A DNA stretch of 26,762 nucleotides, from NCBI GenBank assembly GCA_038058745.1, contig JBBUAI010000013.1:1-26762 (forward strand), written 5' to 3'. This document shows, in pieces, positions 3,270-24,879 of the stretch. The notes under the pieces are model-generated. The model made no database searches and had not been told where the DNA came from. It saw only the letters and a list, made by a program, of their open reading frames with translations. Source of the DNA: Patescibacteria group bacterium. Its GTDB lineage: Bacteria > Patescibacteriota > Minisyncoccia > Phycocordibacterales > Zambryskibacteraceae. A program made the translations under genes and the position numbers. Position 1 is the stretch's first letter; each line of letters starts with the position of its first letter.

Positions 3270-3372
3270 ATGATCCGCCAGCTGACGGATGCCGCTTCCG
3301 GTCCGACTGCTTCATCTGTGTTTGCCAGAGCAGCCGGGATAACAGAAACGGTTGCTAATAAATAACTACGCT

Positions 3373-3400
3373 ACTATATCAGAATCTCTAAAAAATTCAA
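3373..3400 (-). promoter_or_regulatory. Candidate sigma70-type promoter for rpsA (TTGAAT-16-TATAGT on the minus strand)
   Basis: Reverse complement reads TTGAAT tttttagagattctga TATAGT. The -35 abuts palindromic element copy A. It would give a ~95-nt 5'UTR. Confidence 0.35.
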
Positions 3401-3438
3401 CTACATAATAAGAATCCTATAGGACCACTATTATGTAG
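3401..3438. repeat. Palindromic element copy A: CTACATAATA-N18-TATTATGTAG with central CCTATAGG
   Basis: Perfect 10-bp inverted arms with palindromic centre cctatagg. The reverse complement matches copy C in 13 consecutive nt (ctactacataata), the CTATAG core and TTATTATGT. Confidence 0.55.
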
Positions 3439-3583
3439 TAGTTAAATAATTAAATAATGAAAAGGGCGGGACCATCACGGTCCCGCCCTGGTTGATCTCG
3501 GTTCCGCCGATCACGGTTGCGCGCACGTTGGTCCGAGCGAATTCCAGAACTTCCGAGAAGACCGCCAACTTGTCAGTCCGCAT
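3431..3583 (-). CDS. Possible 50-codon small ORF (MRTDKLAVFSEVLEFARTNVRATVIGGTEINQGGTVMVPPFSLFNYLTTT) inside an orphan promoter-to-terminator unit
   Basis: AGGAGG sits 8 nt upstream of the ATG (3583). It is below the ORF-track length cutoff. The terminator hairpin lies inside its 3' coding part, so it may instead be a small RNA. Confidence 0.3.
   Translation of the reverse strand: MRTDKLAVFSEVLEFARTNVRATVIGGTEINQGGTVMVPPFSLFNYLTTT
3452..3488 (-). terminator. Rho-independent terminator on the minus strand
   Basis: Minus strand reads GGGCGGGACC-GTGAT-GGTCCCGCCC followed by TTTTCATTATTT (10-bp GC-rich perfect stem plus U-run). No U-run follows it on the plus strand. Confidence 0.6.
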
Positions 3584-3603
3584 AATGTAAACCTCCTGTT
3601 ACC

Positions 3604-3632
3604 ATATTATCATATTTAAACTTAAATGTCAA
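3604..3632 (-). promoter_or_regulatory. Strong sigma70-like promoter on the minus strand: TTGACA-17-TAATAT
   Basis: Reverse complement of 3604..3632 is TTGACA tttaagtttaaatatga TAATAT. The predicted TSS is just upstream of the AGGAGG at 3598..3593. Confidence 0.5.
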
Positions 3633-3654
3633 GGATGAAAATAGGGCTCAAATT

Positions 3655-3663
3655 TGGTATAAT
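3655..3663 (+). promoter_or_regulatory. Extended -10 (TGgTATAAT) 6 nt upstream of the ATG at 3670; candidate leaderless promoter
   Basis: tttgGTATAATttagctATG. There is no Shine-Dalgarno sequence between the hexamer and the start codon. Confidence 0.4.
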
Positions 3664-3669
3664 TTAGCT

Positions 3670-4164
3670 ATGATTATCAGCTACCAAGGGGTAGAGAGCT
3701 TCAAGATTTCCCAAGGCGATTTGACGCTTGCGTTGAACCCGCAAGCGAAGGTATCAGCCGATATCACTCTCTTCACCAAAGGCCGAAATGAGACATCAGA
3801 GAAATCTGGTTTTGTTATAGACAGCCCGGGCGAATACGAAATAAAAAATGTTTTCATCAAAGGATTCCTTGATAAGACATATCTTGTGACATTTGAAGGA
3901 ATCAAATTATGCTTTCTTGGTTCAAAGGCGGAGCAGGAAGAAATTGAGGATATCGACATCCTCTTCGTGCGGCCTAACGCTTATAAAGCCGCGGTGGCTC
4001 TGGAGCCGGCTGTAATCATTCCGATGAATTATGATAAAAACACTCTGGCCCAGTTTCTGAAAGAAGCCGGAGAAGACAAAGTTCTACCACTCGACAAATT
4101 CGTGGTAAAGAAGAAGGACCTCGAGGGCATGGAAAGCGAGATAGTTGTTCTGAAAGAGGAATAG
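3670..4164 (+). CDS. Hypothetical protein; N-terminus resembles MBL-fold (UPF0173-like) hydrolases but lacks the HxHxDH metal motif
   Basis: 'MIISYQGVESFKISQGDLTLALNPQ' resembles the 'MKITYLGHS.F.IE.G...L.DP' opening of UPF0173/MBL proteins. No His-rich motif follows. 164 aa. Confidence 0.55.
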   Translation: MIISYQGVESFKISQGDLTLALNPQAKVSADITLFTKGRNETSEKSGFVIDSPGEYEIKNVFIKGFLDKTYLVTFEGIKLCFLGSKAEQEEIEDIDILFVRPNAYKAAVALEPAVIIPMNYDKNTLAQFLKEAGEDKVLPLDKFVVKKKDLEGMESEIVVLKEE

Positions 4165-22187: not shown

Positions 22188-23750
22188 TTGGAGCACCAAA
22201 AAAATAGATTTGATTTTTCGAAAGTGAAAGACAAAACTTCCTGGGCCTCACAGGCGGCGGATGAAATTATTGCCGCGCATCCTGGCGAAGGAGCATATGT
22301 GACGGCCGCTGGCATCAGTCCTTCGGGAGTGGTGCACTTTGGCAATTTCCGCGACGTGGCAACTGCTCACCTGGTACGGGAAGAACTGGTCAGAAAAGGC
22401 AAAAAATCCAAACTCATCTTCTCCTGGGACAATTTTGACCGTTTCCGAAAAATTCCGGCCGGTGTGCCGGAATCCTTCTCCGAGTATATCGGCAAGCCGC
22501 TTTCCAAAATTCCCGACCCTATGGGTAAACTTTCTTCATACGCGGAGCATTTCCAAAAGCTGTTTGTCGAAGCGATGCGAAAACTTAACATCGAAATCGA
22601 GTATCGTGACCAGACGACTTTGTATGAAAGCGGTATTTATGATGAAGCGATTTTTGAAGCGCTTAAGAAGAGGAAGGAAATCGCGGATATTCTACTCTCC
22701 TTCATGTCGGAGAAAGCAAAGGGGGAGAAGGGTATTAATCCCGCCGAATACCAGGAAAACTATTATCCTATTTCCGTCTACTCCCGCTTTACAGGCAAAG
22801 ATACCACGAAGGTTCTTAGATTCGACGGTAATACCAGTATCACTTATCTCTGTGTCGAAACGGGCAAGGAAGAGCCCATAGACCTTTCAAAAGAACATAT
22901 CGCCAAGCTTGCCTGGAAAGTGGATTGGCCCATGAGGTGGCGGCACGAGAGGGTGGTTTTCGAGCCAGGCGGACACGACCACGCTTCCCCGGGGTCGAGC
23001 TTCGACATCGGTACGGAGATTGCGCCGAAAATATTCGATTACAATCCACCGCTTTTCGTCGAGTATAAATTTGTGGGCATCCAGGGCCTCGGCGCTAAGA
23101 TGTCCGGTTCAAAGGGTAATGCCATCTCTCCCTTAGAGCTCATGGAAGTCTATGAGCCGGAGGTGTTGAAGTGGCTTTACTTCAGGAAGTCGCCCGACCA
23201 ATCATTCGAACTCGCTTTCAATACGGAAATTTATCGCCAATATGATGAATACGACGCAGAACATTTGGAACTTAATTCCATCCCATTCCGCCAGGTAGTC
23301 GGCTTCGGACAGGTTGTGCAATGGCAGGAGAATAAATTAAAAACCATTCTTGATGCGCTCAATTTAAAATACAGTACAAAAAGTATTTCCAGCCGACTAC
23401 CGCTCGCGAAAAATTGGCTCGAGAAATACAATCCATACGAAGTAATAAAATTAAACAATACTCCAAACTCCTCTTACGCGTTTTCCATGAATGATGTGGG
23501 GAGAAGACAAATCAATCGGTTGCGGGAAGAATTGGAGAAAAATAAAAATGCTTCAGTCCAGGAGCTGGATATCCTGGTCTACGATATTCCAAAATTGCCA
23601 GGGTTGAACGAAGAAGAATTAAAGAAAGCTCAAAGAGCGTTCTTTAAAGACGTTTACAATCTTTTAATAAACAGGGATGCTGGTCCTCGCCTCGGCACTT
23701 TCCTCTGGGCTGCGGATAGGGGACAAGTTTTGAAGCTATTGACTTTTTAA
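22188..23750 (+). CDS. lysK: Class I lysyl-tRNA synthetase (LysK type)
   Basis: TTG start adjacent to the greA stop. HIGH-like 'GISPSGVVHFGNFRDV' and KMSKS-like 'KMSGSKGNAISP' match class I LysRS rather than class II LysS. Confidence 0.8.
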   Translation: MEHQKNRFDFSKVKDKTSWASQAADEIIAAHPGEGAYVTAAGISPSGVVHFGNFRDVATAHLVREELVRKGKKSKLIFSWDNFDRFRKIPAGVPESFSEYIGKPLSKIPDPMGKLSSYAEHFQKLFVEAMRKLNIEIEYRDQTTLYESGIYDEAIFEALKKRKEIADILLSFMSEKAKGEKGINPAEYQENYYPISVYSRFTGKDTTKVLRFDGNTSITYLCVETGKEEPIDLSKEHIAKLAWKVDWPMRWRHERVVFEPGGHDHASPGSSFDIGTEIAPKIFDYNPPLFVEYKFVGIQGLGAKMSGSKGNAISPLELMEVYEPEVLKWLYFRKSPDQSFELAFNTEIYRQYDEYDAEHLELNSIPFRQVVGFGQVVQWQENKLKTILDALNLKYSTKSISSRLPLAKNWLEKYNPYEVIKLNNTPNSSYAFSMNDVGRRQINRLREELEKNKNASVQELDILVYDIPKLPGLNEEELKKAQRAFFKDVYNLLINRDAGPRLGTFLWAADRGQVLKLLTF

Positions 23751-23811
23751 TACTTTAAGTGTATAGTCTAAGTAGATTAGGTTTTGCGGTTATGGCCGCG
23801 AGGAGAAAGAG

Positions 23812-24156
23812 ATGAGAAATCGAGCAAGTCTCGACCCCATCGTCTGGAGTTCATTTGGCCTGCTCATGTTCGTCTTTGGACTGTTGGGATTTGTTATCGC
23901 CCAACAATCCGCAAACGAGAACACCGCACTCAAGGAGAGTCTTACCGGCCCAGTCACGGAAGCAGTAGTGCTTCCAAATGGCGAGCAGTACAAGGTACTC
24001 ACTTTGGGCAACCGCCGGTTCCTGGCCGCAGAAATTATCGAAACAGTAGAGGGTGGCCCAACATGCGAGAGTCTCATCGTCTACGGTTCCGGCACCCGCG
24101 TGTATAACCCGGTGAGGTTCGAGTGCCATCAGAGACAGTCAATATTCGGCAAGTAG
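23812..24156 (+). CDS. Small membrane-anchored hypothetical protein (114 aa)
   Basis: GAGGAGAAAGAG SD. One N-terminal TM (FGLLMFVFGLLGFVIA). Followed directly by a strong terminator. The 23784..24107 frame is rejected in its favour. Confidence 0.5.
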   Translation: MRNRASLDPIVWSSFGLLMFVFGLLGFVIAQQSANENTALKESLTGPVTEAVVLPNGEQYKVLTLGNRRFLAAEIIETVEGGPTCESLIVYGSGTRVYNPVRFECHQRQSIFGK

Positions 24157-24163
24157 TTAAGAA

Positions 24164-24197
24164 GGGCGGAAGCGCTAACGCGCTTCCGCCCTTTCTT
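24164..24197 (+). terminator. Strong Rho-independent terminator
   Basis: GGGCGGAAGCGC-TAAC-GCGCTTCCGCCC (12-bp perfect stem) followed by TTTCTT. Confidence 0.8.
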
Positions 24198-24216
24198 CAT
24201 GTCAAAAATTTCTATA

Positions 24217-24254
24217 CTACATTTTAATAATGCTATAGCATCCTTATAATGTAT
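24217..24254. repeat. Palindromic element copy B: CTACATTTTAATAAT-GCTATAGC-ATCCTTATAATGTA
   Basis: Direct repeat of copy C at about 80% identity, with the same gctatagcatc core and the same flank lengths. Abuts the stop codon of the wHTH/Cas2-like gene. Confidence 0.55.
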
Positions 24255-24824
24255 TTAGATAAGATTGAAATCCATCCGTAAATACTTGTCGTTTTCTATT
24301 TGGTCCACTATCATGTAAAGCAAATTCTTTCCTATACCTAGATCAGTTTTCATCAAGCCCATAACATCTTCGCAATCGTAAGGATAAACCCAAACGCTGT
24401 CTTGTAGCCGGATGAATCCTGTGGCTGAAAGTATTTTTCTAACCCGTTCTCGCATTTTCTTTTTCTTCTCCGGAATGTCGAAGATTATCACTCGCCACTT
24501 TTTATCCCATCTTTTTGGACGTTTAATTCGATAGTTAGACATTTGCCATTGATCTAATATTTTTGTTCCGGCTGCAGTAGGAGAATAATGCCCGTTCTCA
24601 AATATAAGCAATCCTTTTCGGCTTAAGCGACTTGCGGCAGATTTCACTATCTCACTTTTTCTTGGAGAAGTAGCGGAGAAATCAGTATCGAGCAGGGAGT
24701 CTATTACTTGTTTTGCTAGCATATCTCCTCCTATTCTTCCGCTAGAAACAATAACTAAAAGAATTGCCTCCTGCATTTTTGTTCTTCTTAAATTTTTTCT
24801 AGTTGCTTCCTCGAGATTTCCCAT
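24255..24824 (-). CDS. Hypothetical regulator-like protein: N-terminal winged-helix-like region plus a C-terminal segment resembling the Cas2/VapD beta-alpha-beta core
   Basis: C-terminal 'WRVIIFDIPEKKKKMRERVRKILSATGFIRLQDSVWVYP' resembles the Cas2 N-terminal core as recalled from memory ('hhVhV.YDIs.dkRRrKlaKlL.dyG.RvQ.SVFEc'). N-terminal 'EIVKSAASRLSRKGLLIFENG' looks like a wHTH recognition helix plus wing. About 38% GC. Flanked by palindromic copies B and C. The start may be Met1 or Met17. Confidence 0.55.
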   Translation of the reverse strand: MGNLEEATRKNLRRTKMQEAILLVIVSSGRIGGDMLAKQVIDSLLDTDFSATSPRKSEIVKSAASRLSRKGLLIFENGHYSPTAAGTKILDQWQMSNYRIKRPKRWDKKWRVIIFDIPEKKKKMRERVRKILSATGFIRLQDSVWVYPYDCEDVMGLMKTDLGIGKNLLYMIVDQIENDKYLRMDFNLI

Positions 24825-24841
24825 TTTTAGTTACTATTCTA

Positions 24842-24879
24842 CTACATAATAATAAAGCTATAGCATCGTTATTATGTTT
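24842..24879. repeat. Palindromic element copy C: CTACATAATAATAAA-GCTATAGC-ATCGTTATTATGTTTA
   Basis: 8-bp inverted arms cataataa / ttattatg placed symmetrically around gctatagc. It lies 18 nt upstream of the wHTH/Cas2-like start, over its presumed promoter (TAGAAT 13 nt upstream of the ATG). Confidence 0.55.

Follow-up and report, generated by a model that had tools for sequence, protein, structure and literature searches.

A promoter, a 50-codon orphan frame and an embedded terminator in the variable slot upstream of rpsA in a Zambryskibacteria-like Patescibacterium

The gap between rpsA and the divergent MBL-fold gene

The analyzed stretch of DNA (26,762 nt, hereafter the window) carries rpsA (3269-2148, minus strand, four S1 domains) and, 400 nt away from it, a divergent MBL-fold gene of 164 aa (3670-4164, plus strand) that is followed by gyrA. 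The gap between the two holds what a sequence-only reading had described as a self-contained orphan transcription unit, with its own promoter, a 50-codon frame and an intrinsic terminator embedded in that frame. The locus is also found in the Patescibacteria MAG GCA_964367465.1 (Hainich groundwater), assigned to Candidatus Zambryskibacteria / Parcubacteria group. The 400-nt intergenic region was 100% identical in four fetched loci (an NCBI MAG, an ENA assembly, and two Logan assemblies), and as these are independent, an assembly artefact was ruled out; being identical in all four, the unit carries no polymorphism with which constraint could be tested. The features of the region are as follows.

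3284-3363, minus strand: structured 5' leader of rpsA, with covariation
3373-3400, minus strand: rpsA's own promoter, TTGAAT-16-TATAGT with TG; equivalents in the related loci L104, L092, and L090
3395-3436, no strand: AT-rich palindromic repeat, ACATAATA...CCTATAGG...TATTATGT; holds the stop codon of the 50-codon frame and abuts or overlaps the -35 of rpsA
3431-3583, minus strand: 50-codon open reading frame, MRTDKLAVFSEVLEFARTNVRATVIGGTEINQGGTVMVPPFSLFNYLTTT; species-specific, stop codon TAA at 3433-3431
3452-3489, minus strand: intrinsic terminator, GGGCGGGACC, loop GUGAU, GGUCCCGCCC, U-rich tail; inside the frame, codons 32-44
3498-3510, minus strand: small hairpin UCGG, loop CGGAA, CCGA; first element of a conserved 3' module
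3524-3583, minus strand: orphan 5' part of the frame, codons 1-20, with gene-like codon usage
3581-3597, minus strand: Shine-Dalgarno (SD) sequence and start codon, AGGAGG 3597-3592, 8-nt spacer, ATG 3583-3581
3604-3632, minus strand: sigma-70-type promoter by sequence, TTGACA 3632-3627, 17-nt spacer, TAATAT 3609-3604
3635-3663, plus strand: promoter-like site of the MBL-fold gene, ATGAAA-17-TATAAT with TG, back-to-back with the preceding promoter

The promoter, the SD sequence and the start codon are present on the minus strand where they had been read. Both hexamers are near consensus, the 17-nt spacer lies in the 16-18 nt range of sigma-70-type promoters, and an extended -10 TG is found at 3612-3611. 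In a scan of the window the site scored 10 of 12 consensus positions plus the TG; five promoter sites in the whole window reach 10/12, three of them with the TG as well. AGGAGG followed after 4-10 nt by ATG occurs at only three sites window-wide, one of which is the ATG at 3583. Since 6 nt separate the -10 from AGGAGG, the transcript is predicted to start at or just before the SD sequence (about 3597), with the latter at its extreme 5' end, unpaired in the predicted fold, and with a predicted 5' UTR of about 14 nt.

The frame opened by this ATG runs from 3583 to 3431 and encodes exactly the peptide that had been quoted. The terminator does lie inside it and ahead of its stop, with the stem at 3488-3464 beginning at codon 32 and the tail extending to 3452; as DNA, the arms are GGGCGGGACC (3488-3479) and GGTCCCGCCC (3473-3464), with a GTGAT loop between them and the tail TTTTCATTATTT (3463-3452). 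Its stem has 10-12 bp, 9 of them G-C, with a loop of 3-5 nt and the U-tract directly after the stem, and by scan (12 pairs, 9 G-C) it equals the best-scoring terminator-like hairpin of the first 20 kb. Unlike the order found in an ordinary small-protein gene, the stop codon (3433-3431) is downstream of the terminator (3489-3452), 24 nt past the start of the U-run. The unit is on the rpsA strand, 162 nt upstream of rpsA, and no second terminator is found between the embedded one and rpsA. From the signals present we infer that an RNA would be made and terminated here, its transcription most likely ending at the embedded hairpin. Its predicted length of about 143 nt (from about 3597 to about 3455) keeps the short terminated RNA that had been proposed and refines the earlier figure of about 145 nt; bounded by its own promoter and terminator, it falls in the 50-300 nt range of trans-acting small RNAs. 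An RNA ended at about 3455 has no in-frame stop codon.

The neighbouring elements lie outside the unit. The palindromic repeat is context; the stop codon does fall in it, as had been noted, together with the rest of the last six codons of the frame. It is kept at the same place in L104, L092, and L097 and has two further copies in the window (24211-24252 and 24836-24877), which flank a PaaX-like regulator gene. On the other side of the unit, the ATG of the MBL-fold gene (3670) is only 7 nt past its -10, and the mRNA is therefore probably leaderless. The rpsA leader consists of two nested helices enclosing the loop CUGGCAACCAYUGAUGAAG, which is conserved. Of the cells of a 9-sequence alignment, 96% were paired, with double changes at 10 of the 17 pairs. 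A model built for the leader had 41 matches, each of them immediately 5' of rpsA, in which 92.8% of the cells were paired and 15/17 pairs compensated, as compared to 35-51% paired in controls in which the partner was slid by 1-3 columns. The leader has no Rfam match, and rpsA, bS1, Parcubacteria, and Patescibacteria are not named in a 2020 survey of ribosomal leaders (PMC7247131).

The same slot in related genomes

The intergenic region was compared by blastn and nhmmer with rpsA loci, 80 of them drawn from species-representative genomes and the other 80 from metagenomes (given here by their L numbers). At about 100 of the related loci the MBL-fold gene precedes rpsA on the opposite strand. 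The interval between the MBL-fold start and rpsA residue 35 varies from 97 to 2270 nt in 59 genomes; nine of the shortest measure about 195-200 nt, and that of the window 503 nt. Both ends of the gap recur: the promoter block adjoining the MBL-fold gene (3665-3604) is kept in L007, L008, L032, and L034, and about 110 nt directly upstream of rpsA are kept at many loci. Long gaps usually hold, in this order, a promoter, a 5' UTR with a strong SD sequence, one gene, its stop codon (often TAG, then CAC..CG), often a small hairpin with a CGG loop, and a GGGCGG...CCGCCC terminator with a T-run, beyond which follow rpsA's own promoter and then the structured leader. A promoter of the form TTGACA-N17-TAnnAT with a preceding TG stands before such cargo genes at many of the related loci; because the promoter in the window matches this conserved form of the clade, it is probably active, and this part of the self-contained unit is credible. 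The cargo genes are mutually unrelated, range from 41 to over 400 aa, and encode mostly secreted, membrane or small proteins.

L007, L097: membrane protein of 292-335 aa
L011, L018, L025, L101, L107: helical protein of about 100 aa
L009: 411-aa protein
L104: lipoprotein-like protein
L008: 41-aa membrane peptide
L093: 57-aa basic protein
L086, L092: further genes

The terminator of the unit is credible on similar grounds, as the hairpin-plus-terminator module recurs at the equivalent site upstream of rpsA in relatives. The small hairpin stands between the cargo-gene stop and the terminator in L007, L009, L011, L018, L025, L092, and L097, and its loop always starts with CGG. The stem changes in a compensatory manner (UCGG/CCGA, CCCGG/CCGGG, CCAGG/CCUGG, GUACAG/CUGUAC, and CUCGA/UCGAG, with a G-U pair in L018). 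A terminator lies past the cargo-gene stop codon in these seven loci as well as in L104, and those of L104, L097, L025, L009, and L011 are homologous to that of the window. As an alignment of the module with MAFFT and RNAalifold misaligned the hairpins, a structural descriptor (stem ≥ 4 bp, CGG-initial loop, short spacer, strong terminator) and a covariance model were used instead. The descriptor scan returned 17 sites in about 1.46 Mb (both strands), 7/17 of which lie exactly here upstream of rpsA, the window included; the module of L009 was missed due to a bulge. The covariance model recovered L097, L025, L104, L009, L011, L007, L094, L107, L092, and L018, and its search also showed that GGGCGG...CCGCCC terminators are generic across the clade. 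The module is confined to a small subclade and occurs at about 8-10 of the roughly 160 loci.

Wherever relatives have them, the counterparts of the hairpin (3510-3498) and of the terminator (3489-3452) are non-coding and lie past a stop codon. In this genome only about 75 nt of orphan sequence lie between the promoter, SD sequence and ATG on one side and the 3' module on the other, and the frame opened by the ATG consequently runs through what in relatives is 3' UTR, terminator and palindromic repeat. Because those counterparts are non-coding and the last six codons are inside the repeat, about 60% of the 'protein' is translated 3' UTR, terminator and repeat. The conservation check that had been proposed for both peptide and hairpin gave a divided answer, with the hairpin module kept in relatives and the peptide not.

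The orphan frame and its RNA

The 50-aa peptide was found only as itself among 5.8 billion proteins and has no Pfam family, while the five other reading frames, joined as one query, gave no match at E up to 10; the label 'orphan' that the unit had been given is correct. When all six frames were searched by tblastn against the related loci, only noise was obtained (best E 0.06). The tblastn check of the peptide that had been suggested was likewise without a match in the 160 related loci, except across the non-coding terminator: residues 22-48 matched DNA past the cargo-gene stop codon of L097, the sole match outside the own species.

The first 20 codons have a different character. Codon usage was scored with a codon table of 23 window genes, for which 20-codon windows of real genes have a mean of 0.33 (standard deviation 0.21). 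Codons 2-20 scored 0.326 per codon in the frame of the ORF, against -0.47 and -0.30 in the other two frames, a value reached by 0.4% of stop-free shuffles and by 5% of spurious open frames inside real genes. Their GC content by codon position (0.55, 0.35, 0.75) compares with 0.54, 0.37, and 0.58 in the genes. Codons 21-50 are weaker (0.10 per codon), and the score of the whole ORF is still positive. Codons 2-20 hence have the appearance of a stretch that codes, or once coded, for protein in the ATG frame, and codons 1-20 may represent either what is left of the 5' end of a lost cargo gene or coding sequence of recent origin.

Neither a DNA nor a protein match to this 5' part was found in the relatives, and no donor was recognised among their cargo genes. 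Local alignments of the DNA to 8, and then to 10, cargo genes were comparable to shuffles after multiple testing. By eye the N-terminus resembles the cargo family of about 100 aa (L011/L018/L025/L101/L107; MxxRTxKKM...EI.E), a likeness that was rejected in a profile test, where the peptide stood at the median of 5000 shuffles. An alternative frame ending before the small hairpin at TGA 3513-3511 was rejected as the ancestral one, with a codon score of -0.54 and no start codon.

These results bear on the small protein that the sequence-only reading had put forward, i.e., a functional lineage-specific micro-protein as the cargo gene of this genome, in which closely following ribosomes would block the hairpin and the mRNA would reach the stop at 3431. 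The strong SD sequence with its optimal 8-nt spacing, the unpaired start region and the gene-like codons argue for it, as do the very small cargo genes in the same slot of L008 and L093 and the fact that the ORF is present on six contigs, where a gene caller predicted it. Against it stand the lack of any homolog or family in the searches above and the C-terminal 60% made of relatives' non-coding sequence. In addition, the cargo genes of all relatives examined stop short of the terminator, and here one of the two strongest terminator-like hairpins of the first 20 kb sits 24 nt ahead of the stop. We consider such a protein unlikely.

The RNA was examined in the same way. The covariance-model check that had been proposed gave nothing at the gathering score when the Rfam 15 models were run on the window, and nothing meaningful at E up to 10; the best sub-threshold match was on the wrong strand and covered the terminator hairpin alone. 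No tRNA or tmRNA was predicted by ARAGORN. A structured body was rejected: with the terminator removed, the remaining 108 nt fold no more stably than their shuffles (z = +0.68), and the z of -2.1 of the whole transcript is carried by the terminator. Between the SD sequence and the module, the body (about 3590-3515) has no match by blastn or nhmmer in the 160 related loci. Pairing of the RNA with the leader or start of rpsA or with the 5' end of the MBL-fold gene was also rejected, duplex energies being no better than those of dinucleotide shuffles.

In the dual-function sRNAs SgrS/SgrT, RNAIII/Hld, and SR1/SR1P the ORF ends before the terminator, and RNA and peptide are both conserved among relatives. 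Like them, the unit would give a short transcript bounded by a promoter and terminator of its own, with a small ORF behind an SD sequence, but neither its RNA nor its peptide is conserved and its ORF overruns the terminator. Another parallel may be offered by CpxQ and SroC, 3'-UTR-derived small RNAs of enterobacteria, since here too a conserved hairpin and terminator at an mRNA 3' end could exist as a separate short RNA; the module is short, however, and may amount to a plain terminator plus a helper hairpin. A stand-alone small regulatory RNA would have this 3' module as its core, normally freed from the 3' UTR of the cargo mRNA and here directly expressed. The promoter and terminator about 143 nt apart are in line with this, and so is a module kept behind unrelated genes with an invariant loop-initial CGG and compensatory stem changes, including the G-U pair of L018. 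The unconserved and unstructured body, the fold owed to the terminator, the missing Rfam match and the shuffle-like pairing with the neighbouring genes speak against it, the module is found in only a small fraction of the loci and GGGCGG terminators are generic in the clade, and a hairpin beside a terminator can also be explained as a plain stabiliser of the 3' end. This reading is decidedly unlikely in our view.

The third product that had been considered was a leader or attenuator-like element. Ribosomal-protein autoregulatory leaders include that of E. coli rpsA, and the present unit is likewise upstream of rpsA, but the structured leader here is a separate element (3363-3284) downstream of rpsA's own promoter. 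With a conserved promoter and leader of its own further downstream, rpsA does not need the unit as a leader. The E. coli pyrBI attenuator, where a leader ORF overlaps an intrinsic terminator upstream of the regulated gene, is a comparable arrangement: a promoter, an SD sequence and an ORF of about 44-50 codons with its frame running through the terminator. Unlike pyrBI, no U-rich pause sites are found upstream here, the downstream gene has its own promoter and leader, and the arrangement is not conserved in any relative.

In a pyrBI-like, translation-coupled attenuator of rpsA, a ribosome close behind the polymerase would, by translating the 50-codon frame, keep the terminator from forming and so let transcription from the strong upstream promoter continue into rpsA, whereas termination would follow when translation fails. 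The architecture fits (promoter, SD sequence and ORF through the terminator, 162 nt ahead of rpsA on its strand), and in L090 the equivalent upstream promoter leads directly into the promoter and leader of rpsA, no terminator intervening. However, only in this genome do ORF and terminator overlap; in the relatives the terminator comes after a complete gene. The covarying leader behind rpsA's own conserved promoter is the likelier regulator. Moreover, inspection of the sequence by eye and of the predicted folds showed nothing upstream that is complementary to the terminator arm, and there are no diagnostic codon runs ahead of the hairpin. We regard this attenuator as highly improbable. A broader version, in which either a translating ribosome masks the terminator of a translation-sensing attenuator or a micro-protein has been newly born by read-through of a former 3' UTR, appears very unlikely.

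None of the three proposed products is conserved, the outcome that the sequence-only reading had itself taken to speak against them: the peptide has no homolog and its module is non-coding after the stop of a full-length gene in relatives, the RNA body has neither a DNA match nor a fold better than shuffles, and rpsA is served by its own promoter and leader.

A proposed truncated or nascent cargo gene as the filling of the slot

The explanation we favour, with roughly even confidence, is that the unit is a truncated or nascent cargo gene, a nearly empty filling of the hypervariable slot between the MBL-fold gene and rpsA. A cargo-gene stump comprising the promoter, the SD sequence, the start codon and about 20 codons may have been joined to the 3' module of the slot by an internal deletion; alternatively, what is joined to the module may be a very young gene. 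Because the stump matches no cargo gene of the relatives, in DNA or protein, its origin as a relic of a deletion is only presumed. The promoter would fire, the polymerase would halt at the hairpin, and the resulting RNA of about 143 nt would contain no in-frame stop. If ribosomes did start at the strong SD sequence, they would make a non-stop or run-on protein without a conserved function. The part under selection would be the terminator module, which may serve to keep upstream transcription out of rpsA. Counting against the stump, a strong SD sequence, an accessible start and coding-like codons are also what would be expected of a functional small ORF.

Gene remnants and lineage-specific orphan small ORFs in variable slots offer a fitting comparison, with intact expression signals around an unconserved short frame and conserved flanks whose content changes between related genomes. 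The present case is unlike them in that the donor was not found and in that the frame was lengthened through the 3' UTR and terminator, with no premature stop.

By itself the orphan frame matters little, being species-specific and with no sign of a conserved function, and gene callers should not spread it as a 'hypothetical protein'. Were the frame shown to be translated, or to control read-through into rpsA, it would provide one of the few worked cases of gene birth or of attenuation from an uncultivated lineage with reduced genomes, and if the attenuator were true, the synthesis of S1 would be tied to ribosome availability in a reduced-genome Patescibacterium. What the locus means more broadly is that the gap between the MBL-fold gene and rpsA in Zambryskibacteria-like Patescibacteria is a hotspot for the gain and loss of unrelated cargo genes behind strong promoters, some of these genes having a recurrent 3' hairpin and terminator in common, and the unit in the window would be a snapshot of one such cargo gene dying or being born.

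Gene turnover between the MBL-fold gene and rpsA

The slot that separates rpsA from the divergent MBL-fold gene is a gene-turnover hotspot, as seen when positions 3270-3669 of the window were compared with the related loci fetched around rpsA (L006-L165). The distance from the start of the MBL-fold gene to residue 35 of rpsA varied from 97 to 2270 nt (n = 59 genomes), and the slot was occupied by unrelated, lineage-specific "cargo" genes, each located downstream of a TTGACA-17-TAnnAT/TG promoter. Several of these unrelated cargo genes shared a single 3' context, which consisted, in this order, of the stop codon (mostly TAG), CAC..CG, a hairpin of 4-6 bp with an invariant CGG at the start of its loop, a spacer of 4-12 nt, and a terminator. 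This context was located as follows:

3498-3522, window
1222-1287 in L097, 2182-2249 in L025, 2192-2260 in L009 and 1860-1925 in L011, relatives
2318-2388 in L007, 494-562 in L092 and 1974-2041 in L018, further relatives

Locus L008 (2156-2400, identical in locus L088) harbors a hairpin, GGGCGGGACC...GGTTCCGCCC, that is nearly identical to the terminator of the window. It is situated directly 3' of the promoter and upstream of the SD of an ORF encoding a 41-aa membrane peptide, which is followed by a second, different terminator; hairpin and gene thus occur in the reverse of the arrangement seen at the other loci. On the other side of the slot, the MBL-fold gene (3635-3672, plus strand) seems to be leaderless: the end of its -10 box (TATAAT, 3658-3663, with a TG in front) and the ATG at 3670 are 6 nt apart, and an ATTATA/ATTTTA box is similarly close to the start codon in relatives.

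A second cargo-like unit and the palindromic repeat

Another unit of the window has its elements in the same order as those upstream of rpsA:

23739-24197, plus strand, second cargo-like unit
23739-23767, plus strand, its promoter (TTGACT-17-TATAGT)
23812-24156, plus strand, its ORF of 114 aa

No Pfam family was found for the 114-aa ORF. The unit is closed by the terminator GGGCGGAAGCGC...GCGCTTCCGCCC, and approximately 20 nt past it lies a copy of an AT-rich palindromic repeat, ACATAATAA-N5-CTATAG-N5-TTATTATGT, the copies of which are listed here together with a neighboring gene:

3395-3436, 24211-24252 and 24836-24877, copies in the window
~748-785 in L104, ~583-617 in L092 and ~1320-1362 in L097, copies in relatives
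24255-24824, minus strand, PaaX-like regulator gene (PF20803)

At the rpsA promoter, one of the copies in the window overlaps the -35, and the repeat is kept there in the three relatives with arms that change symmetrically. The remaining two copies in the window are placed immediately upstream and downstream of the PaaX-like regulator gene. The repeat could be the operator of this regulator or, alternatively, a hairpin-forming intergenic repeat.

A structured leader of rpsA

A conserved structured RNA makes up the 5' leader of rpsA in the window and in 40 related loci:

3284-3363, minus strand, structured rpsA 5' leader
2421-2500 in L008, 2393-2472 in L016 and 2391-2472 in L014, examples in relatives

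It contains two nested helices, P1 (CCGUUUCUG/CGGAAGCGG) enclosing P2 (8 bp, variable in sequence); its loop (CUGGCAACCAYUGAUGAAG) and its 5' flank (UUUAUUAG) are both conserved. Searching with a covariance model recovered the leader in 41 of 81 sources, directly upstream of rpsA every time; 92.8% of the cells were paired and 15 of the 17 pairs had compensatory changes, values matched by none of 500 shuffles. At least one lineage can do without the leader, since locus L013 (2434-2510) lacks it altogether, its promoter (TTGCAT-17-TATATT) being followed after 14 nt by the TTG start of rpsA. No match was found in Rfam 15, and none of the words rpsA, bS1, Parcubacteria, and Patescibacteria turned up when the 2020 survey of ribosomal leaders (PMC7247131) was searched for them. 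We regard the rpsA leader as a candidate for a new S1 autoregulatory leader of Patescibacteria.
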